Virus record (IMG/VR): IMGVR_UViG_3300045119_000180 | Location: 40,075-104,074 of that record | Length of the DNA stretch: 64,000 bases | Strand: one strand, 5' to 3' | Origin: a virus | Part shown: positions 5,336 to 30,818 of the stretch, piece after piece | How positions within the stretch are numbered: the first letter of the stretch is position 1 | How the letters are laid out: every line of letters begins with the position of its first letter | Notes under the pieces: generated by a model | Database searches by the model: none | What the model saw: only the letters and a program-made list of their open reading frames with translations | What the model was told of the DNA's origin: nothing | Made by a program: the position numbers and the translations under genes

Positions 5336-5350
5336 AACTGACTAAATTAA

Positions 5351-5965: not shown

Positions 5966-5966
5966 C

Positions 5967-10654: not shown

Positions 10655-10660
10655 TTTAAA

Positions 10661-10843
10661 ATGAAGAAGAAATTCGCTAAATATCTTATTCCAAAGCGCG
10701 CTAAAATACTATTAAGCGCCAATCGGCTAATTGATTCGTTTAATGAAAAAGAGCAAACATGGGAGACAGACGATACAGACGGTCATCCGCACGAGTTTAC
10801 GGCTATTTATAAACTCGTTCGTGTCAAGAAGGTCAAAAAGTGA
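10661..10843 (+). CDS. Hypothetical protein
   Basis: 60-aa ORF after the promoter, GTGA overlap with the next gene. Confidence 0.55.
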   Translation: MKKKFAKYLIPKRAKILLSANRLIDSFNEKEQTWETDDTDGHPHEFTAIYKLVRVKKVKK

Positions 10844-11904
10844 AAGCAAAATTCATACCATTAGGCGATTTAAGCAATCTTTCAGAAGAGCAGAAGCTTG
10901 ACTATTATAATAACGTCTGTGAACACTTTGAAGTGCCGGCAGAACTGAATTTATTGTATTTCGATTGGTTCGATTCGGGCGACGGAGCCAGAAAGTACAT
11001 CCTTTACGCCGCGAAGGGCTTTTCGGACTTTATGCGCGGCAAACTGGGCATTGAAACGGACAGTTTGGAAGAGTCGGTTTCAGATGGCGTAGTACGGTAT
11101 AAGTGTAAGGGCCACGATAAAGATGGCCGTCACGAAATTGCTATCGGCGCAAGTACGATCGCAGGACTTACAGGTAAGAAGCTCGAGGATTCTTTCGCGA
11201 AAGCACAGACGAAAGCAACCAGGCGTATGACGCTGCAATTTGTAGGCGCCGGCATTCTAGACGAATCTGAAAAGTCAGTTACAAGCCTTTCTGTTGACAT
11301 TTCTTCCGCAGGTCTTCCTCTGGCCCAACTGCCCACAGTAGAGATCAACGCTGCTAAGGGTAAGTTGGTTGAGATGGCTAATGAGGCTACTAATCGGGCG
11401 GTTGATATGCTTCATGATCAGCATCCTCTGGCTTTTGAAGCCGTAAAGGTTTCTGGCGAACTGGTTGCTGCGGTTAACGGTTTGGAAACGGAGCTGCGTC
11501 GACGTCCAGGACCAAAGCAGTCTGACAATTTGGTAGTTGACACCAATTTGGGTACAGTTGACACCAATTTGGGTACAGTTGACACCAATTTGGGTACACC
11601 TGCCGAATTGACTTTTAAGCAATGGCTAAGTCGCCTTACGAATGAAATCCTGCCACCTCCTCCAAGCGGCCAATCCGGGACGTTTACGACTTATGGCGGT
11701 ATGAAGCCGTCGTTAGGCGTTGGCGGCGTATCAATGAAAGTCGTTTCGTACGCCAGGAAGGTCTTTCCGGGCAAGGAAATAAAAGAGTTTACTCTAGACG
11801 ATCAAAACGCGTTCAAAAAAGGCTTCGATAATGTATTAAAAGAGCAAGGTGCGGTCGGTTTGGTTAAACATATAAACGATTCGTTAGGTGTAAAGGAGGG
11901 CTGA
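10840..11904 (+). CDS. Putative single-strand annealing recombinase (RecT/Rad52-like superfamily)
   Basis: LSEEQK..YY..VC, LYA, AKAQTKATRR.TL...G.GILDESE pattern; near a PD-(D/E)XK nuclease gene. Confidence 0.55.
   Translation: MKAKFIPLGDLSNLSEEQKLDYYNNVCEHFEVPAELNLLYFDWFDSGDGARKYILYAAKGFSDFMRGKLGIETDSLEESVSDGVVRYKCKGHDKDGRHEIAIGASTIAGLTGKKLEDSFAKAQTKATRRMTLQFVGAGILDESEKSVTSLSVDISSAGLPLAQLPTVEINAAKGKLVEMANEATNRAVDMLHDQHPLAFEAVKVSGELVAAVNGLETELRRRPGPKQSDNLVVDTNLGTVDTNLGTVDTNLGTPAELTFKQWLSRLTNEILPPPPSGQSGTFTTYGGMKPSLGVGGVSMKVVSYARKVFPGKEIKEFTLDDQNAFKKGFDNVLKEQGAVGLVKHINDSLGVKEG
11536..11598 (+). repeat. Perfect 3 x 21-bp in-frame tandem repeat
   Basis: GTTGACACCAATTTGGGTACA x3, encoding VDTNLGT x3. 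Confidence 0.95.
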
Positions 11905-13844: not shown

Positions 13845-14243
13845 GTGAAGAATTGCCGCAGCCGTGATACCCAAGGCGAACTCCGTAACAGCTTTGACAG
13901 CAATTCGCCGTTTATGACCGGCCATTCGATTATGGTCGTGCGACGACATAAGCGCCGTATTCCAGAATGGGCTAAAGACGACAAACAACTACGACAATTA
14001 ATTTCGAGATCTTTTCCTTACCGTAAAAGTAATCCGGACCAAAATCTCAGAGCTGGCCGTTGGGCTCGATTCATTTATCTTTATTTCAGGATGACTAAAA
14101 CTAGAAGCGAGATAGTAGGCGAAATGTCATTGACGTACCACGCTGTTGATAGTCTTTGCCGGGCGATCTACCGTGCGGCCGCCGGGCTTAAGGCTAACGG
14201 CAATGGTAAGGCTGGCGGACGCCCAGGACGCCCTAAGAAATAG
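13845..14243 (+). CDS. Hypothetical basic protein, possible HTH DNA-binding domain
   Basis: IYLYFRMTKTRSEIVGEMSLTYHAVDSL resembles a sigma region-4/HTH; AT-hook-like GRPGRPKK end. Confidence 0.5.
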   Translation: MKNCRSRDTQGELRNSFDSNSPFMTGHSIMVVRRHKRRIPEWAKDDKQLRQLISRSFPYRKSNPDQNLRAGRWARFIYLYFRMTKTRSEIVGEMSLTYHAVDSLCRAIYRAAAGLKANGNGKAGGRPGRPKK

Positions 14244-14276
14244 TGCCTGCATCCAGCCGTCTAATAGAGGCTAAAT
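14241..14276 (+). promoter_or_regulatory. 36-bp conserved motif, copy 2
   Basis: TAGTGCCTGCATCCAGCCGTCTAATAGAGGCTAAAT; 33/36 identical to 1760-1795. Confidence 0.7.
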
Positions 14277-14825: not shown

Positions 14826-14899
14826 TGGCCTCTAGCATAACCGGTAATTGCGTCGTCCTGTTAAGACGAAGGATCTCTGTTCGAATCAGAGGGGGCCAG
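14826..14899 (+). tRNA. tRNA-Asn(GTT), CCA not encoded
   Basis: Acceptor TGGCCTC/GGGGCCA, D arm with GG, anticodon arm TCGTC-CTGTTAA-GACGA, T arm CTCTG-TTCGAAT-CAGAG, discriminator G. Confidence 0.9.
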
Positions 14900-14909
14900 C
14901 TGAGGAGTT

Positions 14910-15591: not shown

Positions 15592-15966
15592 ATGACAGAA
15601 AAAAGCAACAAAGCATTCGGCGTAAACGAATTAAAGCCTAACACGAGCCATTTGATCCCGGGCAAGACCGGCGACGGTAGTAACGCCGACCCGCTTACGA
15701 CTGGCAAGTATTCACGGCAGGAAGTTGATGAATTGATTCAATTGGGTAAGGAGGCGAGAGGCGAATTAAAGCCGATGGTTCTTCCTGAAGAGTTTAAAAA
15801 TTGGGGTGAAGGAGACGTCAGTTCGACTCCTGTAGAAGACGATTATAAGTTCATAGATACAACTCCGTATGGCGTACAAGAGCGATTGACCAGTCTTGAG
15901 AATAAATTCGAAGAGCTTCAAAGCCGTTTGGTCAAGGCGTTTAAACACGCAGGATTTAACTTTTAA
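15592..15966 (+). CDS. Hypothetical protein with C-terminal coiled coil
   Basis: GAGG SD; TAATG-coupled to the GT gene. Confidence 0.6.
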   Translation: MTEKSNKAFGVNELKPNTSHLIPGKTGDGSNADPLTTGKYSRQEVDELIQLGKEARGELKPMVLPEEFKNWGEGDVSSTPVEDDYKFIDTTPYGVQERLTSLENKFEELQSRLVKAFKHAGFNF

Positions 15967-16751
15967 TGGATTTAAGCAAAGTCAGCATCGGGATTCGTAC
16001 TTTTTTACGCGATGAGTGCTTAAAAAATTCTATCGCAGCGATTCGCCGTACGATGCCTGACGCTAAAATGATAATTGCAGACTGCGGAGAGCATACGCAG
16101 GAAAAGTATGATCTTTATTCAGAGCTTAGCCGGGAAGGGCATTTGTGCTTTACGCTTCCATGGGATTCCGGATTTGGCTGTATGAGCAATTGTATTGCGA
16201 GCGCAGCAACTCGGCCCTATCTTTTGATTGGCAGTGATGATTTCGACTTTAATCCTCCGGAAGTAAGAAAAGGGATTGAGTCTTTCGTGGAGTGTTTGGA
16301 TAACTGGCCGACTTTAAGCGTTGTTAGCGGACGGGTCAATAATAAATTTTATGAGTATTACTTAGAAGACAAAGGCGACGAAATTAAAGAGTCGCCAGCT
16401 CTGTGGGGTATTTATGCCGCGGCAAATCAAATTATTCCCTGGCTCTATCCAATTGATCTGACGGTTAATTACTGTTTAGTTCGAAAAGAAGTATTTCAGA
16501 AAGTCCAATGGGATCCAGAGGCTAAGATAGGGCAAGGTGAACACGGTTCGTGGTTCGTGGATATCAAGCGAGCAGGTCTTAAAGTAGGTTGGATACCCGG
16601 AGTTAGCATTAGCGAACAGCCGAATCAGAACAGTGATCGATATCGTGAATTCCGTAATAGAGCTAGGAGCCCCGAAAGAAGTTGTTTTAAGAAACGCGGC
16701 ATTAAGAAGTATGTTTTAGGTTGCGGAACAGTCGACTATGAAGAGACGTAA
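15966..16751 (+). CDS. GT-A glycosyltransferase (GT2/GT12 B4GALNT-like)
   Basis: IGIRTFLR...MIIAD...DSG...YLLIGSDDFDF...VNY...EH. Confidence 0.75.
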   Translation: MDLSKVSIGIRTFLRDECLKNSIAAIRRTMPDAKMIIADCGEHTQEKYDLYSELSREGHLCFTLPWDSGFGCMSNCIASAATRPYLLIGSDDFDFNPPEVRKGIESFVECLDNWPTLSVVSGRVNNKFYEYYLEDKGDEIKESPALWGIYAAANQIIPWLYPIDLTVNYCLVRKEVFQKVQWDPEAKIGQGEHGSWFVDIKRAGLKVGWIPGVSISEQPNQNSDRYREFRNRARSPERSCFKKRGIKKYVLGCGTVDYEET

Positions 16752-17232
16752 GAAGTGTACTAAATGCGGAGAAATAAAGCACTTTTCTTGTTTTTCGCCG
16801 GACAAAAGGGATGAAAAAGGCCGTCTGCGTTGGCGAATGGGCGTTTGTACTGCTTGTAGGTCCGAAGGTTTTAAAAAGAAGTACTGGAACGACCCTGTGG
16901 CAGCAAGGAGAAATGCCAGGAAAAATAGGACCTCAAAAAAGATGAGGGACTGGAATTTAAGATTTGCTTATGGAATAACTCTATTGGAGTGGGAGGATAT
17001 TTTTACAAAGCAGGGCCGACAGTGTGCTATTTGTAAAAGAAAGAAACCAATTGGTCTAGGTTGGGCGACAGATCATAAAGGTTGGCATTGCAGAAGAGGT
17101 AAATTACGTAAAAGAATAAGAGCAATTTTATGTCAACATTGTAATACTCTTTTAGGCCAGGCAAGAGAGTCGGTAGATATTTTAAAAGCGGTAATTGCGT
17201 ACATAAGAAACAATAAATGGGCAAATTATTAA
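16738..17232 (+). CDS. EndoVII-family homing endonuclease
   Basis: CTKC..CTAC, YGITL, QGRQCAIC, TDH, RAILCQHCNTLLG. Confidence 0.8.
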   Translation: MKRRKKCTKCGEIKHFSCFSPDKRDEKGRLRWRMGVCTACRSEGFKKKYWNDPVAARRNARKNRTSKKMRDWNLRFAYGITLLEWEDIFTKQGRQCAICKRKKPIGLGWATDHKGWHCRRGKLRKRIRAILCQHCNTLLGQARESVDILKAVIAYIRNNKWANY

Positions 17233-17909
17233 TATCTATAAAATCATGCCGTCGCGACTGGATGCGCGGCGATCATGACGTCATTCGCTCGACGTGGGGC
17301 AAGGATGTTCCCGAAGGCGTTGATTTACGGTTCTTTATGGGCACGGAAAGTTATAGGCTATGTACCGACGGCGATGAAGAATGGTTGGATGTTAAAGACG
17401 ATTACGATTCACTCCCTCAAAAGGTTAAGGCTATTTTTAAATGGGCTTTAGAAAAACAATATGACTACATTTTCCTTGCGGACACGGATACGTTCGTTAT
17501 ACCAAAACGCCTTATTGCGCTTCCTTTTCAAGACTATGACTTATCTGGTCGGTTCGGGAAAATTAAGCCTATTGGCGAGACCTTTAGATATATTGACGGA
17601 CGAGATATTGTTTACGACCCCTGTTGGCCCTGGCCAAGCGGAGGGTGCGGTTATTTTGTATCGGCTAAAGGTGCCGATTATATTTTACGTACAGGATTTA
17701 CAGGCTGGGCCGAAGACATTCAGTCAGGCCAAGCACTCGGACCGCTGGAAAAACTAGGCTTGGTAAAGATAGGCGATCTAGAAGATCTCGAGTGTAAGGC
17801 ATCGTGGCATTTTCCGCGGTGGAAGTACAATCAGGAAGTTTACCATCCCCGATATGGTTGGCAAGAGAAGATGTATAAAGAGCATAATGAAAATAGCGAT
17901 AGTCATTAA
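17217..17909 (+). CDS. GT31/Fringe-like glycosyltransferase A
   Basis: IRSTW, FFMG, DDYDSLPQKV, ADTDTFV (DxD), SGGCGY, AED. Confidence 0.75.
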   Translation: MGKLLISIKSCRRDWMRGDHDVIRSTWGKDVPEGVDLRFFMGTESYRLCTDGDEEWLDVKDDYDSLPQKVKAIFKWALEKQYDYIFLADTDTFVIPKRLIALPFQDYDLSGRFGKIKPIGETFRYIDGRDIVYDPCWPWPSGGCGYFVSAKGADYILRTGFTGWAEDIQSGQALGPLEKLGLVKIGDLEDLECKASWHFPRWKYNQEVYHPRYGWQEKMYKEHNENSDSH

Positions 17910-18594
17910 ATCATGCCAGCGCGATAAATACGCCGGCTGCCATTGGGCAATTAGAGAGACGTATGCCAACACTCTGCCAGCTGGCGTAGATCTTTATTTT
18001 GTTATGGGCGGCCCTAGGATAGAACTGCCGTCAGAAATCTTAAAAGACGAATTATGGTTCGACGTAGACGACGGCTATTGGGAGCTACAGCCTAAAGTCA
18101 AATTGGCTTGTAAATATATAGTTGACAATAACTACGATTTTTGTTATTTTGCAGACACTGACAGTTATTTAATCGTGCAAGAATTGCTCAAATCCGGGTT
18201 CGAAAAGTACGACTTTTCAGGCGGCCATTTGTGCGGCCGTAATCACGGAGAGAATCAATTTGGCGTTAAATATCCGGCTTATAAAGACAGCCACGGAGCG
18301 ACATTGCCGCACCTTTATGTCTATCTGTCCGGAGGCGTAGGCTTTTTCGTGTCAAACAAGGCGGCTAAAGCATTGGCCGAGACGGATATGTACTTTCATT
18401 CAGAGGATGTCTGGGCCGGCCAAGTCATCGGCCCGTTTATAGAGCGTGGCGAGATGACAGCTAGTCTGCTGCCGTTCGTAGAGCATCATTCGGCCTGGCA
18501 TCTTAATTGTGGCTATTACGGCGGCGGACATACGGAACGGCTTAATGCCGGTGATGCAGTAAGGCGTAAGCATAAGGACCTTGGGTATATATAA
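17887..18594 (+). CDS. GT31/Fringe-like glycosyltransferase B (paralog of A)
   Basis: IRETY, FVMG, DDGY.EL.PKV, ADTDSYL, SGGVG, SEDVW. Confidence 0.75.
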   Translation: MKIAIVIKSCQRDKYAGCHWAIRETYANTLPAGVDLYFVMGGPRIELPSEILKDELWFDVDDGYWELQPKVKLACKYIVDNNYDFCYFADTDSYLIVQELLKSGFEKYDFSGGHLCGRNHGENQFGVKYPAYKDSHGATLPHLYVYLSGGVGFFVSNKAAKALAETDMYFHSEDVWAGQVIGPFIERGEMTASLLPFVEHHSAWHLNCGYYGGGHTERLNAGDAVRRKHKDLGYI

Positions 18595-18815
18595 TGAGTG
18601 AATTCATCGATGATGAAATCGAGCGGGCGGGATTGAGTATCAGTGCCCAAGCAGGGCAGTGGGTACGCGACAAGCTAGCCGAGGCGGGTATCAGCCAGGA
18701 AGAGATTGACCACATCATGCATGAAGCGGTTAAGGACGTGATTGTGTCGGCTGTATGTCCGTATTGTCAAGGATATAAGTTAACCCGCAAACCGTGTCCG
18801 TGTTGCGAAAGATAA
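18594..18815 (+). CDS. Small Zn-ribbon protein
   Basis: CPYC...CPCC; TAATG coupling. Confidence 0.55.
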   Translation: MSEFIDDEIERAGLSISAQAGQWVRDKLAEAGISQEEIDHIMHEAVKDVIVSAVCPYCQGYKLTRKPCPCCER

Positions 18816-18823
18816 AGGAGATT

Positions 18824-19624
18824 ATGCGCATCTTAGTTACAGGAAGTTCCAGCTACATTGCTTCAGGCGTTTTACCGCGGCTTTATAGGGCTTTTCCGAC
18901 GGCGCTGATCTCTTTATGCGATCTTAAGAACGGCCAGGATTTCGGCGAATTTAAAGGTCATCACTTCAACGTCGTACTACATATCGGCGCATTAAGTACG
19001 ATTGTCGACTCCGGTAGCAAGGCTGATTATATGCTGGACGTCAACGCTTTCCGAATCTTGAAGTTTCTACGTAATAACACGGTTGATAAAATCTTATTCC
19101 CGTCAACTGGAGGAGCTATTTATGGCAATAGGACGACGCCAGCTAAAGAGTCAGATGCTACTTGGAGCGGGTGTGTTAATCCTTACAGCCAGTCTAAGTA
19201 TATCGCTGAAAGGATTATTCGGGAATTATGCCACAATCATACGATTCTTAGGCTTGGTAACGTCTTTGGTGGTGATATGGATAGCCGGACAGAGGCGTTG
19301 GTTTTGACGCATTTTGCGCATGACAATCCAATTATTGTTTACGGTGGTGATCAGACCAGGGATTTCGTCCATCTAGACGTCGTTAGCGAAGCGTTCATTA
19401 AAGCTATCCAACTAGATGTCACCGGGACTTTTAATATCGCTAATGGCGAGTCTATCCGATTGATGGACCTAGCGGAGAAATTTTCGGCTTATCGTCAGGT
19501 GCCAATTGAAATGCGTCCGCACAGGCCTGAAGAGATGATTGATGTGGCGTTGGATGTCACGGCAGCCAAAAAGGCCGGATTGATTCCGAAGAAACAGAAG
19601 AACGATTATCTAGGGGTTCTTTAA
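18824..19624 (+). CDS. NAD-dependent NDP-sugar epimerase/dehydratase
   Basis: ILVTGSSSYIA (degenerate Rossmann), STGGAIYG, YSQSK (YxxxK), LRLGNVFG, GDQTRDFVH. Confidence 0.85.
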   Translation: MRILVTGSSSYIASGVLPRLYRAFPTALISLCDLKNGQDFGEFKGHHFNVVLHIGALSTIVDSGSKADYMLDVNAFRILKFLRNNTVDKILFPSTGGAIYGNRTTPAKESDATWSGCVNPYSQSKYIAERIIRELCHNHTILRLGNVFGGDMDSRTEALVLTHFAHDNPIIVYGGDQTRDFVHLDVVSEAFIKAIQLDVTGTFNIANGESIRLMDLAEKFSAYRQVPIEMRPHRPEEMIDVALDVTAAKKAGLIPKKQKNDYLGVL

Positions 19625-20238
19625 TGCCACAAACTTGGCCGCCTCAAACGGAATTGTGCGAATTAGCTACGAAATACGGTACAGATAAATACAATTGGCA
19701 TTCCTACACTCCACACTATCACCGCCTGCTTAACGACCGCCGCAACGAAGTCCGTAAAGTTCTGGAGATCGGTATTGGCGACCCGTCTAGTATGTCAGAT
19801 CCGACTGGCAAGCCTTACGTCCCCGGTGCCAGTTTGCGTATGTGGGCCGAATATTTCCCGAACGCCGAAATTTATTCTTTGGATAGTCAGGCTAATCTTC
19901 TGATCAACGAAGGCCGGATCCGTTCTTTCCAGTGCGACCAAGGCGACCGGCATAGTTTAGAAATGGCTATGCCAAAGCTAGGCGCGGGCTTTGATCTTAT
20001 CGTCGACGATGGCAGCCATGTTCCAGAGCATCAAGCGTTGACGGCTACAATGTACGTGCCGCTATTGGCGCCGAACGGCGTTTATATCATTGAGGACGTC
20101 TGGCTGTATCCCAGTCAGGTCGGTTGGTCCAAGGAGCCGTTCGGATTGAAACTGGAAGATATCCCGTATAAAACGGAAGTACTTTACGGCGAAGGCAATA
20201 ATGACGACAGATTGATTTTAATAAAGGCTGGCAGATGA
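19624..20238 (+). CDS. SAM-dependent sugar O-methyltransferase (MycE/ElmMI-like)
   Basis: GTDK..HSY, VLEIGIG, GASLRMW, DQGD, IVDDGSH, YIIED. Confidence 0.8.
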   Translation: MPQTWPPQTELCELATKYGTDKYNWHSYTPHYHRLLNDRRNEVRKVLEIGIGDPSSMSDPTGKPYVPGASLRMWAEYFPNAEIYSLDSQANLLINEGRIRSFQCDQGDRHSLEMAMPKLGAGFDLIVDDGSHVPEHQALTATMYVPLLAPNGVYIIEDVWLYPSQVGWSKEPFGLKLEDIPYKTEVLYGEGNNDDRLILIKAGR

Positions 20239-20414
20239 ATTGGCGTCTTAATGTAGCTAGTTTACTAGCGATTGTGTTAACACTTATTTATGGCTCAGGA
20301 TTGTGTTTTGCTGTAGCTCATAAAGATAAATTAGGAATTATGGTGTTCGGTGTTGCGGTCCTTATTTGTGGTTTTATGTCTTGGGCATCGGGTTTTGCAA
20401 GGCCAAAACCATGA
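20235..20414 (+). CDS. Small two-TM membrane protein (not in ORF track)
   Basis: 59 aa, MNWRLNVASLLAIVLTLIYGSGLCFAVAHKDKLGIMVFGVAVLICGF...; ATGA overlaps on both sides. Confidence 0.55.
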   Translation: MNWRLNVASLLAIVLTLIYGSGLCFAVAHKDKLGIMVFGVAVLICGFMSWASGFARPKP

Positions 20415-21289
20415 AAATCATCCAGTGCAACGACTGCAATCCGGAATTGATTCAACCTCAATATGCATCGTTTAAAAAGCATCTTCAAGACGACTTTCAA
20501 ATGGTTATCTGTAACAGTCTAGAGATGGCTAGAGACCCGCGAAAGTGCCAAGAAGTATTAGACGTATGTCATTTGTTAGGTATAGAAACTGTCCAGGCGA
20601 AACGCGACAAATCAATTGAACTGTATCGCAATACCAACTTTACTTACGGTAGCCCAGAGCCGTTCTTTTCTCCGGAAGGCCGCTTCTGGACGCCCGGCAA
20701 TGCCGGCAATTATCTTATGCAATGGTCATGGGAAAAGATCGTCTGCAAACTTAATGGTCCTATTTGCTATACGCATAGCGATGTCTTTCTAATCGAGCCT
20801 ATTAGATTTACAGACTATCTAAAAGACTATCAAATATGTTCAATTCTGCCGAATAAGCCAGCCCAAAAAGGTCATGGCTTTATGCAATATCTTTGGGAGC
20901 CGCTATTGTTGGTCGATATGGATAGGCTGCCCAGCCCGGAAACAATGATTTGGTGGCCTAGCGAAGTTGAAAACGAATGGACGGATACCGGAGGCAGGAC
21001 GTATTACTATCTACGTGACCATCCGGAATTAAAGGTTCTAGAATTAGGCCAGTCGAGCAGTATAATAGGCGATGCGCCTAATGACGACGATTTTAAGGAT
21101 CCGACAGTAGACTTTCATCCAACAAGATATCGCTTCATTCATTTCCCAGATAAACGGGCGTTTCATTATATGTCAGGGACCAGGTGGTGTACAGATTCGG
21201 AGCACGGGTGGAATTGGCCAAAAGAAAAGGCTGATGAATACCACCGACGAAAGATGGCTTGGACTCGTAAACTAGCAGGTATTGAATGA
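20411..21289 (+). CDS. Probable GT-A-like glycosyltransferase
   Basis: HSDVFLI (DxD-like), DTGG, FHY..G; located in the glycan cluster. Confidence 0.5.
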   Translation: MKIIQCNDCNPELIQPQYASFKKHLQDDFQMVICNSLEMARDPRKCQEVLDVCHLLGIETVQAKRDKSIELYRNTNFTYGSPEPFFSPEGRFWTPGNAGNYLMQWSWEKIVCKLNGPICYTHSDVFLIEPIRFTDYLKDYQICSILPNKPAQKGHGFMQYLWEPLLLVDMDRLPSPETMIWWPSEVENEWTDTGGRTYYYLRDHPELKVLELGQSSSIIGDAPNDDDFKDPTVDFHPTRYRFIHFPDKRAFHYMSGTRWCTDSEHGWNWPKEKADEYHRRKMAWTRKLAGIE

Positions 21290-22245
21290 ATGTAGCTCTT
21301 ATTGGCGCGGGTAAAATTGGTAGAATCCGGGCGGAAGTTATTCGTCAGTCTGAATCACGATTGGTGGCTGTTCATGATGCCAACGATATTGCTGCAGCTA
21401 AATTAGGTCTTCCGGTTTCTTTGGACTTTATTATGACGGCTAAAGACATTAATGCAGTCGTAATTTGTACGCCTACTAAATACCACATGCCTATCGCGGT
21501 ATCGGCGTTACACGCCGGTAAGCACGTTCTTTGTGAAAAGCCGCTAGGGCGGACATTACAAGAAGCTAAACTGGTAGTTCAAAATGTTTTGCCAGGGCAG
21601 ATTCTGCATTCCGGATTTAATTACCGCCATTTAAGCCATGTAAAACGAGCGAAGAAGATTATCGAAAGCGGCGTTCTCGGTGATTTGATGTTCTTTCGTT
21701 CCCGTTTTGGGAACGGCGGCCGACCGGGGTATGGAAAAGAATGGTGTACGCAGAAGGATCTTGGTGGTGGCGGCGTAACGATCGAGCAGGCAATTCATGT
21801 CTTTGATCTTATTTCGTTTCTTTTCGGAGACCCTGAGCGAATTGTAGCAAATATGGATCTTTGCTATCACGGTTTTCCCGATACTGAAGATAATGTCTTT
21901 TGTATGATTAAAACGTCTGGCGGTACAGCCACCGTGCATGTTAGCTGGACGCAATGGACGAATCTCTTTGAAGTAGAGATATTCGGCACAGAAGGTTATC
22001 TAAGGCTGGAAGGTCGTGACGGCTCTTATGGCCCGCCAAGGCTGTATCACGGCATCAGGAACGATGACCATACGCGGCCTTTCGAGCATGAAATTGACCT
22101 GCCGGATGAAAGTAGTTGGGCTTTAGACTGGGCTGAATTCGAACAAGAAGTAGAATCCGGAATTAATGGTGCGTATGGATTAATGGCGCAGCGAATGGTT
22201 GAAGCTGCTTATAAAAGTGTAGATAAAGGCTGGGTTAATATATGA
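21286..22245 (+). CDS. Gfo/Idh/MocA-family oxidoreductase
   Basis: GAGKIG, ICTPT..H, GKHVLCEKP, GFNYR, GGG....IH..D. Confidence 0.9.
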   Translation: MNVALIGAGKIGRIRAEVIRQSESRLVAVHDANDIAAAKLGLPVSLDFIMTAKDINAVVICTPTKYHMPIAVSALHAGKHVLCEKPLGRTLQEAKLVVQNVLPGQILHSGFNYRHLSHVKRAKKIIESGVLGDLMFFRSRFGNGGRPGYGKEWCTQKDLGGGGVTIEQAIHVFDLISFLFGDPERIVANMDLCYHGFPDTEDNVFCMIKTSGGTATVHVSWTQWTNLFEVEIFGTEGYLRLEGRDGSYGPPRLYHGIRNDDHTRPFEHEIDLPDESSWALDWAEFEQEVESGINGAYGLMAQRMVEAAYKSVDKGWVNI

Positions 22246-22877
22246 AAGCCTGGATAGTCGGAGCATCCGGAACAATCGGCGGTGCTATTGCGGATAGGTT
22301 TCATAACGAAGGCGTTGAGGTCTTTAGGAAAAAGGTGGAAATAACGGATTATTATGCCATATCATCAACGGCTAATGCCGTCCGACCCGACATTGTAGTT
22401 AACTGCGCAGGCGTTTATATTTACGGAGCTTTTGGCGGTTCTATATTAGATTGGACGAGTGTTATAGATGTAAATCTTACAGGTAGTTTTCATCTTACTA
22501 GGGCTGTTCTGCCTAACATGCTTGCTAAAGGTGGTGGAAAGATTATTCACCTATCAGGCGGGGGTGCTGCTTATGGTCGGCGGCTTTATTCTGCCTATGC
22601 GGCCTCAAAAGCTGGCTTGGTAAGGTTCGTGGAGTGCGTAGCCGAAGAAGTTGAACAATTTAACGTCCAGATCAATTGTATCGCGCCAGGCTCTGTTAAG
22701 AGCAAGATGAATCCTAAAGGCACTGAAACGCCTCAAAAAGCTGTCGAGCTGGCAATGTATCTAGCCTCGCCTGAATCGAGTCACGTAACCGGCCGGTTAA
22801 TACACGTCAACGAAGACTATAGAAATAAGACTGTTTGGGGCGACGAAGACGGCAAGCTTCGAAGGATGCCTTTATGA
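22242..22877 (+). CDS. Short-chain dehydrogenase/reductase
   Basis: GASGTIG, VNCAG, YAASK, NCIAPG. Confidence 0.9.
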   Translation: MKAWIVGASGTIGGAIADRFHNEGVEVFRKKVEITDYYAISSTANAVRPDIVVNCAGVYIYGAFGGSILDWTSVIDVNLTGSFHLTRAVLPNMLAKGGGKIIHLSGGGAAYGRRLYSAYAASKAGLVRFVECVAEEVEQFNVQINCIAPGSVKSKMNPKGTETPQKAVELAMYLASPESSHVTGRLIHVNEDYRNKTVWGDEDGKLRRMPL

Positions 22878-23167
22878 AAGAATGTAATAGCCAGCCTGTA
22901 CTCAAAAGCTGCCCTGAGTGCCAGAGTAAGAAATTGACGTACGGTGGGTATGGGAATACCTTGCTCGGATGTTATAGTCCACCGGGACACGACCACGACA
23001 ATAATTGTAAAATACATTATTGGAAGTGCGAAAATGGGCATGATATCAGGGAAAGACAGATTAATGTTTGCCCGGCTGAAGGGTGCAATTGGACATCTGG
23101 ACAAGATTGTTTTTGCTCCCCTTTAGGCGCGTGGATAGCTAAAATGGGTCCAGGGATGTATCAATGA
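22874..23167 (+). CDS. Cys-rich hypothetical protein
   Basis: ATGA overlaps on both sides; multiple Cys/His. Confidence 0.5.
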   Translation: MKECNSQPVLKSCPECQSKKLTYGGYGNTLLGCYSPPGHDHDNNCKIHYWKCENGHDIRERQINVCPAEGCNWTSGQDCFCSPLGAWIAKMGPGMYQ

Positions 23168-24141
23168 TAATTGTCAAAAGTCCGATGCGGATTACACTTG
23201 GTGGAGGCGGTACGGATCTGCCGTCGTATGCTGACAAATACGGAAGTTCAGTCCTTTCTGCAGCTATAAATAAATACGTTTATGTCACGGTTAACGAATC
23301 GTTCCGTAATCGAATTACGCTGAAGTATTCAAAGATTGAAGACGTTCAAACACCGGACGAAATCGAGCATCCGGTTATTAAAGCAGCTTTGAAGTTTTTA
23401 AAAATTGATGGCTCAGTCGACATTGACAGCATTTCAGATATTCCCGCAGGAACGGGGCTCGGTTCGTCCGGTAGTTTCACGACTGCACTTTTACAGGCTC
23501 TTCATTTGTTTAAGCGGGAAACAATAACCAAATGCCAATTGGCGGAGCAAGCCTTTCATATCGAACATGACATTCTTAATCAGCATTGCGGTCGACAAGA
23601 CCAATATATTGCCGCTGTCGGGGGTTTGACCATCCTCCGTTTCGGCTTAGATGATATTGGTTATAGGCCCTTGGACATAAGCCGAGAAACTTTAGCTAAT
23701 CTAGAAGAAGGGCTGATGCTTTTCTTTACTGGTTACTCCAGATTGGCCACTGGTATTCTTAGTGAGCAGGACATTAGATTACAGCAGGACGACGCCAGAA
23801 TAACCGAAAATTTGCATCAGATAAAGGATCTAGGAAGGGCTACTCAGATAGCATTAACGCACGGAGATCTCAACGAATTTTCCAATTTAATGCTTCATCA
23901 TTGGGATCTTAAACGGGTTCGTTCTACGGGTACTACCAATGACGAAATCGACAGATTGTACGAATTAGGGCTTGCAAACGGCGCATTAAGTGGTAAATTA
24001 GTAGGAGCAGGTGGAGGCGGCTTTCTATTGTTTTATACGGAAGATCGTCAAAGGCTTCGTTCAAGTATGCTTAAAGCCGGATTAAGAGAGGTCAGAATAA
24101 GATTCGATTTTGAAGGCACATCGATCGTGGCTCATATATGA
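23164..24141 (+). CDS. hddA: GHMP kinase, D-glycero-alpha-D-manno-heptose-7-phosphate kinase-like
   Basis: P.RITLGGGGTD, DIPAGTGLGSSG, GRQDQY, GKLVGAGGGGF. Confidence 0.8.
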   Translation: MIIVKSPMRITLGGGGTDLPSYADKYGSSVLSAAINKYVYVTVNESFRNRITLKYSKIEDVQTPDEIEHPVIKAALKFLKIDGSVDIDSISDIPAGTGLGSSGSFTTALLQALHLFKRETITKCQLAEQAFHIEHDILNQHCGRQDQYIAAVGGLTILRFGLDDIGYRPLDISRETLANLEEGLMLFFTGYSRLATGILSEQDIRLQQDDARITENLHQIKDLGRATQIALTHGDLNEFSNLMLHHWDLKRVRSTGTTNDEIDRLYELGLANGALSGKLVGAGGGGFLLFYTEDRQRLRSSMLKAGLREVRIRFDFEGTSIVAHI

Positions 24142-24359
24142 TATACTCAATATTTTTCGTCTTGTTTTGGTTAATATGTTATTTTCTTTCGTTCGGGTCG
24201 ATAGTCGCATATTTTGACGATCAGGATGGTGAATGGCCGGGTACAACTAAACGATACGCACTGGCAGTTGCGTGCTTGTTTAGTCTTTTCGGCCCGTTCA
24301 GTTTGTTTGTTATGTGGGTTCACGGAGATCTTTTTAAACACGGTTGGCGGCTGATATGA
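24138..24359 (+). CDS. Small two-TM membrane protein
   Basis: 73 aa, two hydrophobic segments; ATGA overlaps. Confidence 0.55.
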   Translation: MIYSIFFVLFWLICYFLSFGSIVAYFDDQDGEWPGTTKRYALAVACLFSLFGPFSLFVMWVHGDLFKHGWRLI

Positions 24360-25402
24360 TATTTACACGAAAATATCTCAACGAAGTGATAGAAATTAGC
24401 AGACAAATAGACGAAGATCAGATTACAAAGGCTGTCGATATCCTAGCCAACCTGCAGGGCCGGCTGTTCATATTGGGCGTAGGCGGCAGCGCGGCCAATT
24501 GTAGCCACGCCGTTAATGACTTCAGAAAGATCGCCAATATTGAGGCTTATGCGCCGACGGATAACATTGCGGAGCTGACGGCCAGGACGAACGATGACGG
24601 CTGGCCATCCGTCTTTGAGAACTGGCTAAAGGTTAGCAAGCTGAACAGTCAAGACGTTCTTCTAGTTCTTTCGGTCGGGGGCGGAAGCGCTACAACCAGC
24701 AAGAATCTCCTTCTGGCAATGGAGCTAGCAGTTGAAAAGAAAGCAAAGATCATTTCGGTTGTTGGCCGAAAAGATGGTGCGGCCGGCCGATTGTCGGATG
24801 TTTGCATTCTTATCCCTAACGTTTCAGAAGAACGAGTTACGCCGCATACAGAGTCGTTTCAAGCTATCGTGTGGCATCTTATAGTCAATCACCCGAAACT
24901 GAAGGCCGGACGGAAGAACAAAGCGGTCTTTCTAGACCGAGATGGAACGCTTAATGCGTTGTTTGATCAACGAGCCCCGAGGAATTTAAATGAGTTTCTC
25001 CTTTTCCCGGATGCTCTACCAGCGCTCAACGAATTAAAACAAGCTGGGTTTAAATTGATCGTGGTAACTAATCAACCAGACATCTCTCGCGGGGAAAACA
25101 CATCAGAAGCTGTCAACGCTATTAATCAAGAATTGATGAACAAATTGCCGGTTGATCATGTTTATCTGTGCTCTCATTCGGACGAGGATAACTGTTTGTG
25201 CCGAAAACCGAAGACTGGTATGTATACACTAGCTGTGGATAAGTACAATTTGGATATAACTAAATGCTATATGATTGGGGATACGTCGCGGGATGTAGAC
25301 GCGGGGTACAACGCCGGGTGTAAAAAGACATTTCAATTAAGAGACGGAATAAACTTAAAAAGAATTGTAAAAGAAATACTGAAGGATTCTAATGGACATT
25401 AA
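24356..25402 (+). CDS. Fused phosphoheptose isomerase (SIS, GmhA-like) and heptose bisphosphate phosphatase (HAD-IIIA, GmhB-like)
   Basis: GVGGSAANCSH, TARTND, ESFQ...H; then VFLDRDGTLN, VTNQ, CSH....C.CRKP, IGD...D. Confidence 0.85.
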   Translation: MIFTRKYLNEVIEISRQIDEDQITKAVDILANLQGRLFILGVGGSAANCSHAVNDFRKIANIEAYAPTDNIAELTARTNDDGWPSVFENWLKVSKLNSQDVLLVLSVGGGSATTSKNLLLAMELAVEKKAKIISVVGRKDGAAGRLSDVCILIPNVSEERVTPHTESFQAIVWHLIVNHPKLKAGRKNKAVFLDRDGTLNALFDQRAPRNLNEFLLFPDALPALNELKQAGFKLIVVTNQPDISRGENTSEAVNAINQELMNKLPVDHVYLCSHSDEDNCLCRKPKTGMYTLAVDKYNLDITKCYMIGDTSRDVDAGYNAGCKKTFQLRDGINLKRIVKEILKDSNGH

Positions 25403-26093
25403 AATCTTTGCTGACGGCGCCGATAAAAAGACGATTCTTGAACTGGCTAACAATCCTTTGATCCGTGGCCTGACGACCAATCCAACATTGATGCGCAAGG
25501 CCGGCATTAAGGACTATAAAGCGTTCTGCAAGGATCTTTTGCCCGCAGTCAGCCATCTGCCTATTTCCTTCGAAGTCTTTGAAGACAGCCCGTTGTTGAT
25601 CTACCACCAAGCCTTGGAGATTGCTTCGTGGGGCAGTAATGTCTACGTCAAAATCCCAGTAACAAATACTCAAAGACGCGAGATGTATCCGATTATTAAC
25701 CAACTCAGCCGAGAGGGTGTCAAGGTTAACGTCACAGCGATTATGACTCTTGACCAGGTTCTGGATTCTGCAGAAGCGCTGAGCCATTCAACGCCAAGTT
25801 ACATTTCGGTCTTCGCCGGTCGAATCGCGGATACCGGCAGGGATCCCATTCCGCGGATGGCTAAAGCGCTTAAGATCATCCGCGATATCAGCCCGCAGAC
25901 GGAATTGATCTGGGCCAGCCCTCGTGAAGTATTAAATATTGTTCAAGCCGATGAAATTGGCTGTGACATCATAACGGCTACGAAAGACATCCTGGATAAG
26001 CTGCCGCTTCTAGGTAAGAACCTTGATGACTATAGTCTCGACACCGTTAAGATGTTTTATAAAGATGCCCAAGAGTCCGGGTATAAGCTATGA
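25392..26093 (+). CDS. tal: Transaldolase (TalC/FSA short type)
   Basis: IFAD, GLTTNPTL, VYVKIP, VNVT, SVFAGRIAD, WASPR. Confidence 0.85.
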   Translation: MDIKIFADGADKKTILELANNPLIRGLTTNPTLMRKAGIKDYKAFCKDLLPAVSHLPISFEVFEDSPLLIYHQALEIASWGSNVYVKIPVTNTQRREMYPIINQLSREGVKVNVTAIMTLDQVLDSAEALSHSTPSYISVFAGRIADTGRDPIPRMAKALKIIRDISPQTELIWASPREVLNIVQADEIGCDIITATKDILDKLPLLGKNLDDYSLDTVKMFYKDAQESGYKL

Positions 26094-26905
26094 TTACTAC
26101 GATGCTTCAAGGGGGCATGAGTAATCAACAATTCCAATATGCGATGGGCTACGCTCGTGCCAAGGATCTAGGAGTCGAGTTGGAGTTGGACATCACTCTT
26201 CTGCAGAATGACAGGATGCGGAAATACTCAATGGGTCTGTGGGCCGGAGTTAAAGAGAATTTGACGTTTGGTAAGCGGTCGACAGTTAATGAAAGGCAGA
26301 TGCCTTACGATATAGATTTGGTGACGGACATTAAAGACGGCGATGTATTACGTGGATATTTTCAGGATGAGAGGTATTTTAAGCAGTATCGCAAAGAACT
26401 GTTGGAGATATTTCGCCCGAAGCAAATGCTATCTGATCGAGGGTTTGAAACAGTAAAGAAGATTTATCAAAAAGGGCACCAAAGTACTTTTCTTACTGTA
26501 CGCCGAACGGACTATCTTAATTCAGACTATCACGGTGTTCTGGACATGGCGTACTATTTAGAAGCTTGCCGGATAGTGGCTGAGCACGTTCCGCCATACT
26601 TCTTCGTGTTTTCTGATGAGCCCGAATGGTGCAAGAAGAATTTTCAAATCCCATATCCTTTCGAAGTAGTAGGAACGTATGACCAGACCAATCACGATCA
26701 TCTAGGCCGTGAAGACGAAGACTTGTGGCTGATGAGCCGCTGTAAAAACGCTGTGCTAGCAAACTCCTCGTTTTCATTCTGGGGTGCTTGGATGTCTCCT
26801 TACGATACAGAGAACCGCATGGTAGTTGGTCCTAAGAAATGGTTTGCCAACGCACCAGGGGTCGACTCTAGCGAAGTTATTCCGAAACGGTGGACGGCGA
26901 TATGA
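26090..26905 (+). CDS. GT11 alpha-1,2-fucosyltransferase-like glycosyltransferase
   Basis: GGMSNQQFQYA, GYFQDERYF, VRRTDY, VFSDE..W, ANSSFSFWGAW. Confidence 0.9.
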   Translation: MITTMLQGGMSNQQFQYAMGYARAKDLGVELELDITLLQNDRMRKYSMGLWAGVKENLTFGKRSTVNERQMPYDIDLVTDIKDGDVLRGYFQDERYFKQYRKELLEIFRPKQMLSDRGFETVKKIYQKGHQSTFLTVRRTDYLNSDYHGVLDMAYYLEACRIVAEHVPPYFFVFSDEPEWCKKNFQIPYPFEVVGTYDQTNHDHLGREDEDLWLMSRCKNAVLANSSFSFWGAWMSPYDTENRMVVGPKKWFANAPGVDSSEVIPKRWTAI

Positions 26906-27528
26906 GTTTTTACGATTTCCCTAAGCATCTTCTGGATCTACAGGCTAAACAGCACGAACGATATTGGCACGATGCCGGCAATTATATGCTTATCGGTCAA
27001 TTCAAGTTAGATCACGATAGTGTAGTTATAGATGTCGGAGGCTATAAGGGTAATTTTACCGCATCTATTCTCGATAAGTATAATTGTATAGTTGATGTAT
27101 ACGAGCCGGTTAAAACTTTTGCGGAAGACATCGAAAAACGCTTTTACGATAATAAATGGGTTACAGTTCACAATTATGCCTTAGAAGATCGCGACTATAC
27201 TGTTCCGATAGCCGGCATGGACGAAGGCAGCAGTATATTTTTTCCTTGCGATAAAGACGCCGAGAAAGTTGAAGTCCGCGATGTCGTTAAGGAGATATAT
27301 GGCGATGCGGATCTTCTAGCGCTGAACGGCGAGGGCTGCGAGTATCCGGTTCTGGAGCGGTTAATTGAAACCGGTAAGATTAAGGATATTAAAAACATTT
27401 TAGTTCAGTTTCATATCTTTGTCCCAGGTGCTGAAAATCGCCGTAATAAAATTAGAGAAGAATTAAACAAGACGCACAAGGAAATGTTCTGCTACGATTT
27501 CTGCTGGGAGGCCTGGACACTTAAATGA
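26902..27528 (+). CDS. FkbM-family methyltransferase
   Basis: VIDVGGYKG, YEP, NGEGCEY, VQFH. Confidence 0.85.
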   Translation: MSFYDFPKHLLDLQAKQHERYWHDAGNYMLIGQFKLDHDSVVIDVGGYKGNFTASILDKYNCIVDVYEPVKTFAEDIEKRFYDNKWVTVHNYALEDRDYTVPIAGMDEGSSIFFPCDKDAEKVEVRDVVKEIYGDADLLALNGEGCEYPVLERLIETGKIKDIKNILVQFHIFVPGAENRRNKIREELNKTHKEMFCYDFCWEAWTLK

Positions 27529-28013: not shown

Positions 28014-28481
28014 GTGGCTGATCCTAATATTTCTATCCGCAAAACCCTCGTGAACGAAGGAGGATATAGTGATAATTCGGCCGACCATGGCGGACCTACA
28101 AATTTTGGTATTGCGAGTGCGAGCCACCCTGGCTTGGATATTAAGAATTTAACTGAAGAACAAGCTATTCAGATTTATAAAGAACAGTACTGGAAGGTTT
28201 ATTATAGCCAGATCGATAGCCAGGATCTGGCAGATAAAATTTTTGACGTCGGTGTTCTGTTCGGCGTCGGCCGTGCAGTCAAATTCCTGCAGTTCGTTTT
28301 GGGAGTTTCGGTTGACGGCGCATTCGGCCCTAATACGTTAGCCGAGCTGAACTCATCGGATGCTAATAAAGTGCTATCAGACTATAAGGTAACTCTAGTT
28401 GAACACGCTATGCAAATTGGGGCTAACGATCCGACGCAACGCCAGTTCGTAAGTGGTTGGGTCAGAAGGATCAATTCGTGA
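28014..28481 (+). CDS. Endolysin, GH108 lysozyme with peptidoglycan-binding domain
   Basis: EGGY...D.GGPTNFGI, Y...YW, DGAFGPNTL, F..GW.RRI. Confidence 0.9.
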   Translation: MADPNISIRKTLVNEGGYSDNSADHGGPTNFGIASASHPGLDIKNLTEEQAIQIYKEQYWKVYYSQIDSQDLADKIFDVGVLFGVGRAVKFLQFVLGVSVDGAFGPNTLAELNSSDANKVLSDYKVTLVEHAMQIGANDPTQRQFVSGWVRRINS

Positions 28482-28915: not shown

Positions 28916-30164
28916 TCTATCTAACCATAAAGAACAAAGGTAAGCGGATTTACGTCGTAGAGACGAAGGCCGCGCCCAGGAAGAAAAAAGAAAAGAAAGC
29001 TAAACCAAAGTTCGAAGTAAATGTCCCAGTATTCGTTCCACCGGTTCATCCCGGTCCGTGGTGCAGAATCTGTCACGATCCGGTGTACTTTTACGAATAC
29101 GAAGATATTTGTTTATATTGCGAAAGGGAAAATGGAACTGATAGAATATCTTAAAGCTAGACGGCAGGTTGAACAGGCTGATCCGGCTTTAGTCAAAGAG
29201 GCCGAAAGATTGGCTTTAATAGTAAAGCAGCGTGGTCTGCCAGCGGTCGATTTGATGTGGCAAGAGCTGTTTAAATTAGCTGAAGAGCCGCAGAAGGAGC
29301 TGTTTAATATCTTATGAAACTGTATCAAGCATTGCTTCTGTTCGGATTATCGGCGTTGGTCATCGGCGCAGTACTCCAGACTGCCATTCCCGATCCGCCT
29401 AAAGGTATGTCGTTCGGTATAGGGCTAAGCGCAGCATTATTAGCGTGGAAAGTGACGAAAAAGTGTTAAAAATTAAAAAGAATGAGTTAATTAAAGTTAT
29501 CCAGGATCTTCAAAAAGAACTCCGTCCGCTTTTAAATGATGGGCGTCGGTGGGGTTGGTGTCCTAATGACAAGCCGTGGCTGGAAAATCTGGCTTATGTC
29601 CAAGCGGACGCTTTCGTAGCTGAATTGAATGGCCATCAGCATTGTTGGCAAAAGGGCCATTACAGTTGTCTTATGTGCTGTGAATGCCAACCTTTTTACG
29701 GCAAGGGATTAGCGGAGGCGATTAAAAATGGCTAACGATAAGAAAGATAAAAAACCGAATTGGGATCGAAAGAATAGCCGATCCGCCGAATTGCATAAAG
29801 ACAAGAAGAAGGCCGAAAATGCTAGCCGGCCGAAGCAGACGTTCGTTAATGGCCGGTGGGAACGCGGATGAACGACGCCCGGAGACGTCGGCTTAAGCTA
29901 CAAGAGCGTATTAAAAGCCAAAAGCCGAAGGCTATGACGCACGAGCGTCTGGCCGAATTGATGGAGCAGCATTTTAATCCCAAGGCCAGAGTGTTCGTCT
30001 TTTTGGACAACAGCGAAGTAATGATAGCTGACGCGCCGGTAGCAGATATCACCAGGACGGTCCAGCGGTCAGCTAATCAAGGTTTATGGTTTACCGACGG
30101 CTATTGCATGACGTTCGTGCCGCCACACGAGATTAGACGAATAGGCATATTTAAAAAGGATTAA
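28912..30164 (+). other. Run of small hypothetical genes (28912-29154, 29132-29317, 29445-29735, 29868-30164)
   Basis: Short, closely packed ORFs with no recognisable motif beyond CxxC. Confidence 0.5.
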
Positions 30165-30818
30165 CGCTAACGCCCCAGCCAACAACATCATTATTGATGG
30201 CTCTGGTGTTTGTATTAGATCCTTACGATTATCTCTATCGAAGAAGTTTACCGCGCCGGCGTCAAACTCGTAAATGCCCGGATATAGTCCAGTAAACTCA
30301 AACGATAAAACACTACTAATGTCTAAATCTCGATCATGGTCACGGTCATGTTTGAATTGATTGATGTATTCAATTCCAGCTTCGTAAAAGTAGCCGAAAC
30401 CACCCGGTCGATTAAGCTCTAGATACACCACACTGAATGCACATCTAAAGCAGTTAGACATGGATATGCTGAAAGGGATGCCTATATTAAGAACCCCTTC
30501 GTCTATAAAGGCTCCTCCGGTCGATATCAAACCAGGAGTGACAACATTGCTGGTTATAGGTCCGCCAAATGTCTCGACAATTCTAGGCACGACACTTGGG
30601 TTTCCAAACCACTGAACTTGACTGTAAAGGTTGATACCGTCAGCTTTTACCAAACCCGCTAGTAATAAAGTTAACACTACGGCGAGTTTAGCTTTTTGAC
30701 AAACAAAGCTGATCGATTTCTTCAGTTCGTAAAGGAAGTTGACGTGCTGTTCTAGTTTGGTTTTGTTTTTGACCTCCTGTTCAAGTTTCGCGATTTCTTC
30801 AGATAGGGTTTTCATCAT
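30084..30818 (-). CDS. PEP-CTERM-like surface protein with N-terminal coiled-coil extension
   Basis: Internal signal-like LAVVLTLLLAGLVKA-D; TPEPS followed by TM IMMLLAGALALILF and K; GGAGG SD. Confidence 0.65.
   Translation of the reverse strand: MMKTLSEEIAKLEQEVKNKTKLEQHVNFLYELKKSISFVCQKAKLAVVLTLLLAGLVKADGINLYSQVQWFGNPSVVPRIVETFGGPITSNVVTPGLISTGGAFIDEGVLNIGIPFSISMSNCFRCAFSVVYLELNRPGGFGYFYEAGIEYINQFKHDRDHDRDLDISSVLSFEFTGLYPGIYEFDAGAVNFFDRDNRKDLIQTPEPSIMMLLAGALALILFKYAYSSNLVWRHERHAIAVGKP

Follow-up and report, generated by a model that had tools for sequence, protein, structure and literature searches.

The 64,000-nt window analysed here (bases 40075-104074 of the 104,074-bp IMG/VR virus record IMGVR_UViG_3300045119_000180) belongs to an uncultured 104-kb phage whose record has direct terminal repeats and is estimated to be complete. 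On its plus strand, at 15966-27528, it carries a glycan island of about 11.5 kb with 15 or 16 intact open reading frames (ORFs), whose stops and starts mostly overlap or abut. Gene content and phylogeny suggest that the core of this island (21286-26093) is a captured bacterial heptose operon of Acidobacteriota type. It has the genes of the bacterial operon minus the nucleotidyltransferase, with the order of two oxidoreductase genes swapped, and genes for glycosyltransferases and methyltransferases adjoin it at either end through overlapping stops and starts. All gene classes named in an initial annotation of this block agree, in place and strand, with our domain, family and solved-structure searches.

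Heptose or "LPS" (lipopolysaccharide) genes have already been reported from phages and read as modifying the host LPS (PMC7378029, PMC7029224, PMC11671562). Annotation routinely places such heptose and glycosyltransferase genes among "LPS auxiliary genes", and none has been tested. The present island is unusually complete, with genes for four steps of precursor supply, three enzymes that would tailor the sugar, five to seven transferases and two sugar methyltransferases.

Heptose precursor genes and the bacterial operon

The proposed heptose pathway was borne out at the domain level by a SIS isomerase, an HddA-type kinase and a HAD-IIIA phosphatase. The first and last are joined in a GmhA-GmhB fusion (24344-25402, +). 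Its GmhA part matches the SIS and SIS_2 domains and TIGR00441 (gmhA; E-value 1.5e-12, below the equivalog cut-off), and homologues are named D-sedoheptulose 7-phosphate isomerase in their source records. The GmhB part scores over the cut-offs of TIGR01656 and TIGR01662 and reaches 125 bits against NF006506 (GmhB; cut-off 178). Both the DxDGT motif of the HAD domain and a Cys/His loop are invariant in an alignment of 16 homologues. More than 8000 homologues of the fusion were found, the closest bacterial ones being from Acidobacteriota at about 50% identity. For the kinase gene (23164-24141, +), the highest-scoring family was NF049969 (HddA; E 1.8e-50), whose equivalog cut-off of 600 bits lies above the 172 bits reached, and the best solved relatives are heptokinases, namely 3k85 (4.7e-45) and WcbL 4usk (3.7e-39). 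These matches place the predicted enzyme among the GHMP anomeric heptose-7-phosphate kinases of the HddA/WcbL class.

Next to the fusion lies a transaldolase gene (25392-26093, +), which scores 308.8 bits against TIGR02134 (curated cut-off 281.95) and shows the Schiff-base lysine motif VKIP in its translation. Transaldolase genes adjoin GmhA in 75 of 80 viral and 76 of 80 bacterial loci, and because of this adjacency we consider that the enzyme feeds the heptose pathway. The sequence thus supports the earlier suggestion of a sedoheptulose-7-phosphate supplier, here of the TIGR02134 type. Upstream of the kinase are genes for a Gfo/Idh/MocA sugar oxidoreductase (21286-22245, +; PF22725 and PF01408), with levoglucosan and inositol dehydrogenases as best solved relatives, and for a short-chain dehydrogenase/reductase (SDR; 22242-22877, +; PF00106, E 3.8e-32) that is probably a keto-sugar reductase. 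A GalE-like NAD-dependent epimerase/reductase of the extended SDR type is encoded at 18794-19624 (+; PF01370, E 8e-22), its best solved relative being 4zrm, a UDP-glucose 4-epimerase (1.5e-15).

The order SDR, Gfo/Idh/MocA, HddA, NTP_transferase, GmhAB and transaldolase recurs in many bacterial phyla. Over the 80 bacterial loci counted (L084-L163), neighbours of the fusion include the transaldolase (76), the kinase (58), Gfo/Idh/MocA (32) and the SDR (23), and in at least 45 loci a 233-aa NTP_transferase lies between kinase and fusion. An epimerase resembling GDP-mannose dehydratase is sometimes found in place of the oxidoreductase genes. Examples of the operon are L089:4155-9898 and L103 (Rhizobium panacihumi). 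Its hosts include Acidobacteriota, Verrucomicrobiota, Chlorobiota, Legionellaceae, Coxiellaceae, Rhizobium and Pelagibacteraceae, among others, and its flanks are not conserved beyond the core. The comparison with bacterial loci that the initial annotation had called for was made with trees of two of the enzymes. In a quick maximum-likelihood tree of HddA, the window groups with L008, a 142-kb viral contig (SH-aLRT 99), and this pair is sister to 14 Acidobacteriota sequences (97). The kinase tree thereby offers a hint of the host, Acidobacteriota, for a phage lineage that has no cultured members.

Described bacterial GDP-heptose pathways (Kneidinger et al., 2001, as cited in PMC7378029; WcbL of Burkholderia pseudomallei, PMC4691232; the capsule heptoses of Campylobacter jejuni, PMC10680097) resemble the phage genes in having a SIS isomerase, a GHMP-type anomeric kinase and a HAD-IIIA 7-phosphatase with tailoring oxidoreductases adjacent. 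The phage differs from them in its fused GmhA and GmhB, in the transaldolase within the operon and in having no HddC-type guanylyltransferase. For its tailoring pair, Gfo/Idh/MocA and SDR, we found no characterised counterpart.

The absence of the activating gene was consistent across searches. A six-frame search of the complete 104-kb genome gave no match to PF00483, PF12804 or PF01467 at E up to 1, while the controls were positive in each of the 14 reference genomes. Nor did the complete genome match profiles built from 46 bacterial transferases of the operon or from phage cytidylyltransferase-like proteins. The HddC-type guanylyltransferase step therefore appears to be missing from the phage. 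Signs of the ADP-heptose route were likewise lacking, as the kinase is of the GHMP and not the pfkB type and PF01467 is without a match genome-wide. Since no sugar-1-phosphate nucleotidyltransferase was detected, the encoded pathway would end at heptose-1-phosphate, and a host HddC-type enzyme would have to make the nucleotide sugar. Accordingly, the earlier view of a phage with its own precursor supply holds for the steps up to heptose-1-phosphate and fails at the HddC step, which is missing both here and in the 142-kb record of L008. In the literature searched, we found no report of two related phages that keep such an operon and have lost exactly the nucleotide-activating gene.

The slot held by the HddC-like nucleotidyltransferase in the bacterial operon is filled in the phage by a 73-aa ORF (24138-24359, +) with two hydrophobic segments in a hydropathy scan. 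At either end it shares an ATGA with its neighbour, upstream between the stop of the kinase gene and its own start, and downstream between its own stop and an in-frame ATG of the GmhA-GmhB gene. There is no remnant of a transferase in this slot, and no counterpart of the 73-aa ORF was seen in L008. A 307-aa ORF (20366-21289, +) was considered as a hidden nucleotidyltransferase and ruled out, as it folds as a GT-A glycosyltransferase. Two upstream ORFs of 354 and 398 aa, also candidates for this activity, gave no match to solved structures.

Among viruses, scanning with an alignment as query identified a GmhA relative in 186 contigs, and 80 loci were kept for counting; a scan with the single fusion protein as query had given no match. 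Neighbours of GmhA in these loci include the transaldolase in 75 and a GHMP kinase in 65. Most loci belong to T4-like aquatic phages, with RNase H, PhoH, SpeD and RNR as further neighbours, and at least 40-56 contigs (L004-L083; e.g., L061:5086-5496, L044:12460-13467) carry a six-gene module of a 136-aa cytidylyltransferase-like protein, GmhA, GmhB, transaldolase, GT4 and GHMP kinase. This module combines an activating enzyme of the ADP-heptose-route type with a kinase of the GDP-heptose-route type, and the literature searched held no description of such a mixed arrangement. Nor did we find there any mention of a transaldolase fixed in a heptose operon, a pattern that here spans many bacterial phyla and extends to at least 75 viral contigs.

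Only L008, the closest viral relative, has most of the window's island, in a different gene order. No nucleotidyltransferase was found across its record and no GmhB in the available sequence. It adds, at L008:12943-15233, a GDP-mannose 4,6-dehydratase (PF16363, E 6e-140) and a 442-aa epimerase/reductase, which suggests a GDP-6-deoxyhexose (fucose-type) branch beside its GT11 gene. Another locus, L164, has GT11, GT31, FkbM, the epimerase and the 307-aa glycosyltransferase, and none of the transaldolase, GmhAB and HddA genes within 20 kb. A sister contig of 100,697 bp carries copies of the fusion, the 307-aa glycosyltransferase and a GT4-like protein of the virion region (discussed below) that are 61-72% identical to those of the window.

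Among GenBank phages, the island had no match by megablast, and no GmhA-GmhB fusion was found at 80% coverage or more. Heptose kinases beside gmhA and transferases do occur there, in SynMITS9220M01, Bellamy and Cr30. Published "LPS/heptose" clusters of Synechococcus phage SynMITS9220M01, Caulobacter phage Cr30 and pelagimyophages (PMC7378029, PMC7029224) likewise combine gmhA and hddA with adjacent genes for glycosyltransferases, epimerases and a methyltransferase. They are, however, clusters of T4-like aquatic phages, in SynMITS9220M01 with annotated nucleotidyltransferases nearby, whereas the present island has an operon of Acidobacteriota type, five to seven transferases and no activating enzyme.

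Glycosyltransferases and methyltransferases of the island

The first gene of the island (15966-16751, +) encodes a predicted GT-A fold glycosyltransferase. The protein has 1168 homologues and no direct Pfam match; its earlier label of "GT2/12-like" fits the PF00535 matches of 26 out of 37 homologues and the AlphaFold2 model (pLDDT 94.6), for which the top Foldseek match is human B4GALNT1 (E 9e-17, TMq 0.68). Two GT31-like enzymes follow. One (17217-17909, +) matches PF01762 at 29.2 bits (cut-off 23) and has a DTD motif, while the other (17854-18594, +) scores 21.2 bits, just below the cut-off; they are tandem paralogues with 35% identity (E 6e-36). The 307-aa ORF, with a likely start at 20411, has only 13 homologues among 5.8 billion proteins and no Pfam family. 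Its AlphaFold2 model (pLDDT 84.5) matches KfiA, LgtC, B3GalT5 and ColGalT1 in Foldseek (E ~2e-5, probability 1.0), and as modelled it is the fifth glycosyltransferase of the island, of a new small GT-A fold family. The remaining one is a GT11-family enzyme (26090-26905, +; PF01531, E 2.7e-19), whose start overlaps the transaldolase stop and for which no solved relative was found by sequence. Members of GT11 use GDP-sugar donors.

Two methyltransferases accompany these enzymes. That at 19624-20238 (+) resembles the macrolide-sugar O-methyltransferases MycE and TylE (3ssm, 1.7e-28; 8ia9, 2.6e-19; weak PF13578), and that at 26890-27528 (+) is of the FkbM family (TIGR01444, 46.6 bits, cut-off 37.7), with no solved relative by sequence. 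Overlapping stops and starts join the transaldolase, GT11 and FkbM genes. No match to the GT9 heptosyltransferases (PF01075) was found at E up to 1.

A hydropathy scan of all 137 ORFs of the genome found no polytopic membrane protein and none with more than three hydrophobic segments. Of the polyprenyl-phosphate priming transferases, PF02397 was absent and PF00953 was not searched separately. These results are in line with the earlier observations that flippase, Wzy and priming enzyme are lacking and that the glycosyltransferases look soluble. Serotype conversion of the Gtr or Wzy type also changes a glycan through phage genes, but it needs polytopic GtrA, GtrC or Wzy, none of which is present; Gtr-type or self-sufficient Wzx/Wzy chemistry is excluded by the predicted gene content. 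The further step of taking soluble transferases to point away from host surface glycans does not follow. Non-initiating O-antigen and capsule transferases are soluble too, and act on lipid-linked intermediates made by the host.

Candidate acceptors of the glycan

We propose a scheme in which two joined modules would act in the host cytoplasm. In module B (21286-26093), the transaldolase would raise sedoheptulose-7-phosphate, GmhA would convert it to D-glycero-D-manno-heptose-7-phosphate, the HddA-type kinase would add the anomeric phosphate, and the fused GmhB would strip the 7-phosphate to give heptose-1-phosphate. After a host HddC-type enzyme had made the nucleotide sugar, most likely GDP-heptose, the Gfo/Idh/MocA enzyme and the SDR, perhaps with the GalE-like enzyme, could change the configuration of the sugar through oxidation and reduction steps. 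Module A (the GT12/2-like, two GT31-like, new GT-A and GT11 enzymes with the MycE-like and FkbM methyltransferases) would then build and O-methylate an oligosaccharide. The oligosaccharide would end up on Ser/Thr-rich fibre and capsid proteins of the phage's own virion, to which a lineage-conserved GT4-like enzyme from the virion genes could attach the first sugar. That virion proteins accept a heptose-containing product of the island is the reading we prefer, tentatively and at somewhat less than an even chance.

This reading gains some support from the GT4-like gene, because it is conserved in the lineage and lies among virion genes. The gene (36364-37464, -) encodes a GT4/GT1-like (GT-B) glycosyltransferase and closes the window's virion operon, a long series of minus-strand genes for very large proteins. 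It has 2980 homologues. PF00534, PF13692 or PF20706 is present in those of about 50% identity, and a protein-atlas search points to viral glycosyltransferase clusters; by sequence, the protein matches neither the GT4 enzyme of the T4-like heptose modules nor any solved structure. Relatives occur in 428 IMG/VR viral contigs, many of 60-160 kb (loci L168-L247), and in L170, L171, L173, L175 and L176 the gene sits between homologues of virion genes. Thirty records with the GT4-like gene among virion genes lack the kinase. Four of these are at least 99% complete and also lack the fusion, which the same profile search finds in four known positives. Since complete relatives keep the GT4-like gene and lack the island, we take the virion-linked transferase to be ancestral in this lineage and the heptose island to be a rare addition. 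The GT4-like family may be a widespread, unstudied enzyme of virion-linked glycosylation; in the literature searched, we found no account of such an enzyme integrated into the virion genes of a large group of phages from soil and water.

The large proteins of the virion operon contain 20-28% Ser+Thr, which also favours this reading. Five proteins of the virion operons (386-2320 aa) start with Sec-like signal peptides, at window positions 52663-55281 (-) and 55295-58411 (-) and at genome positions 3253-4593, 4590-11552 and 22167-23327 (-). Four of the five have 22-28% Ser+Thr and 12-30 cysteines, while the 386-aa protein has 11% Ser+Thr and five cysteines. Such signal peptides are odd for parts of a tailed virion and bear on the question of the acceptor.

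Glycosylated virion proteins are known from the mycobacteriophages Che8, Corndog and Myrna (Freeman et al., 2023, as described in PMC12363180), and Corndog has a cluster of an O-methyltransferase and a glycosyltransferase in its virion operon (PMC4351075). The present phage resembles these in its soluble glycosyltransferases and O-methyltransferase, in the absence of membrane machinery and in having at least one transferase among the virion genes; a soluble glycosyltransferase gene thus lies within or beside the virion operon, as in the mycobacteriophage type. The mycobacteriophage clusters, however, have no sugar-precursor genes and presumably draw on host nucleotide sugars (PMC4351075), whereas here there is a predicted four-step heptose precursor pathway and the main cluster lies outside the virion operon. 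A looser analogy may be drawn with giant viruses, chloroviruses and Megavirinae, in which bacterial-type sugar-nucleotide pathways, glycosyltransferases and methyltransferases are proposed to decorate capsids or fibrils (PMC9614988, PMC10117803). Those are eukaryotic viruses with complete activation pathways. To our knowledge, heptose is not among the sugars of their glycosylation systems.

Protein heptosylation itself is known from the BAHT enzymes AAH and TibC, which are GT9-like, use ADP-heptose and O-heptosylate Ser-rich, Sec-exported, adhesin-like proteins in the cytoplasm. The Ser/Thr-rich signal-peptide proteins of the phage recall these substrates, but GT9 is absent, and the kinase, an HddA type, belongs to the GDP-heptose route. 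The lack of a GT9 gene leaves a BAHT-like route without support.

Several observations weigh against virion proteins as acceptor or against parts of the proposed pathway. The island is about 9 kb from the virion operon and stands beside lysis and integrase genes. Its glycosyltransferase families are typical of LPS and O-antigen assembly, and the Sec-like signal peptides would be hard to reconcile with a large cytoplasmic glycan. L164 has module A without B and the T4-like phages B without A, so the modules are separable. The kinase and GmhB score under their NCBIfam equivalog cut-offs, a transaldolase tree (FastTree) resolves neither an origin nor the window's neighbours, and a non-homologous nucleotidyltransferase may be present among the unassigned ORFs.

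The same chemistry could instead serve a host envelope glycan, such as the LPS core or O-antigen, a capsule or exopolysaccharide, or a surface glycoprotein. Soluble phage transferases would then use lipid-linked intermediates primed, flipped and exported by the host, and the cell surface would be remodelled in the course of infection or lysogeny, which could, for example, prevent superinfection or keep progeny from sticking to debris. We regard this as unlikely but well worth keeping in view. The copy of a bacterial operon and the absent transferase imply a host that already makes heptose, and surface polysaccharide pathways usually employ GT2, GT11, GT31-like and GT-A enzymes that lack membrane segments for their non-initiating transfer steps. 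Lysogeny is possible given two tyrosine recombinase genes, one of them putative, 4-7 kb downstream, and comparable phage genes have been read in this way (PMC7029224, PMC7378029, PMC11671562). Without a priming transferase, flippase, polymerase or ligase, however, the phage would rely fully on host export, which is often of narrow specificity, and known serotype conversion alters one sugar or acetyl group and does not involve five transferases and two methyltransferases. The promoter-like motif that the island has in common with the replication genes (described below) and the glycosyltransferase conserved within the virion modules of relatives also speak against a host envelope acceptor.

A second alternative, which we judge improbable, is that the modules are independent and merely adjacent, with B boosting host heptose and A building a heptose-free glycan from other host nucleotide sugars such as GDP-fucose, UDP-Gal or UDP-GalNAc. 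L164 and the T4-like loci, at least 56 of which have the heptose module with one GT4 only, each carry a single module and show that the two can exist apart. The lack of a GT9 heptosyltransferase would fit this alternative, as would the dehydratase and reductase of L008, the usual route to GDP-fucose, beside its GT11. Nevertheless, we take the modules to be linked because they are interleaved through overlapping genes in the window, with overlaps at the transaldolase, GT11 and FkbM genes, and occur together again, reordered, in L008. The GDP-sugar use of GT11 would also suit a GDP-heptose derivative.

The chance is very slight that the transaldolase is a general pentose-phosphate auxiliary gene like cyanophage talC (present in 481 GenBank cyanophage records) and unrelated to its heptose neighbours, as it is only about 30% identical to cyanophage TalC, belongs to TIGR02134 and adjoins GmhA so regularly; no GenBank phage transaldolase is more than 45% identical to it. 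DNA is an unlikely acceptor, and base hypermodification against restriction the least credible of the alternatives: although phages are known to glycosylate DNA (references cited in PMC7029224) and one distant homologue of the GT2-like protein matches a TET-associated glycosyltransferase family, PF00303 (ThyA-type) and PF12851 (Tet/JBP) are absent from the complete genome, leaving no hydroxymethyl acceptor, the transferase families differ from known DNA glycosyltransferases, and five transferases with two O-methyltransferases exceed any known sugar modification of DNA.

Taken as a whole, the preferred reading would have a tailed phage of Acidobacteriota coat its fibre and capsid proteins with an O-methylated, heptose-containing oligosaccharide for which activation of the precursor is left to the host, and the widespread transaldolase-GmhA-kinase modules of uncultured phages serve glycans and not pentose-phosphate tuning. 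This broader proposition is possible but doubtful. A literature search combining phage, heptose, transaldolase and auxiliary metabolic genes found nothing relevant. Together, these findings open a way to test for what would be the first phage glycan known to bear heptose, and they prompt a re-reading of some phage transaldolases.

Genome setting and other features

The sequencing runs that contain this stretch are soil metagenomes only, one of them maybe the source, and no RNA run is listed. The genome encodes primase-polymerase and DNA polymerase genes. A 36-nt promoter-like motif (TAGTGCCTG.ATC.AGCCGTCTAATAGAGGC.AAAT) at 14241-14276 (+) heads the block that contains a tRNA-Asn gene (14826-14900) and the glycan island. 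Its second copy, identical at 33 of 36 bases, lies at about 1760-1795 (+) before replication genes. We infer that the motif acts as a promoter, and its presence before both the glycan block and the replication genes suggests expression in the lytic cycle, a point in favour of virion proteins as acceptor. Sigma-70 promoter and terminator scans over the block gave results at chance level.

Downstream of the island are a GH108 endolysin gene (28014-28481) and an integrase-family gene (33234-34484), and between them, at 30084-30818 (-), an opposite-strand ORF with hydrophobic N-terminal and C-terminal segments and no Pfam match. A weak candidate for a GT2-like glycosyltransferase lies at 35433-36215 (-; PF00535, E 0.0097, below the cut-off); this ORF is not conserved in related loci. 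The possibility that two 260-aa GT2-like proteins are paralogues was considered and rejected. Within the island, a 110-aa Cys/His-rich ORF (22835-23167, +) between the SDR and kinase genes has no family match and no homologue in related loci. Finally, an endonuclease VII-type nuclease gene (16738-17232, +; PF02945, E 4.6e-15) is wedged between two glycosyltransferase genes, overlapping both, and is an insertion in the block, outside the sugar pathway.

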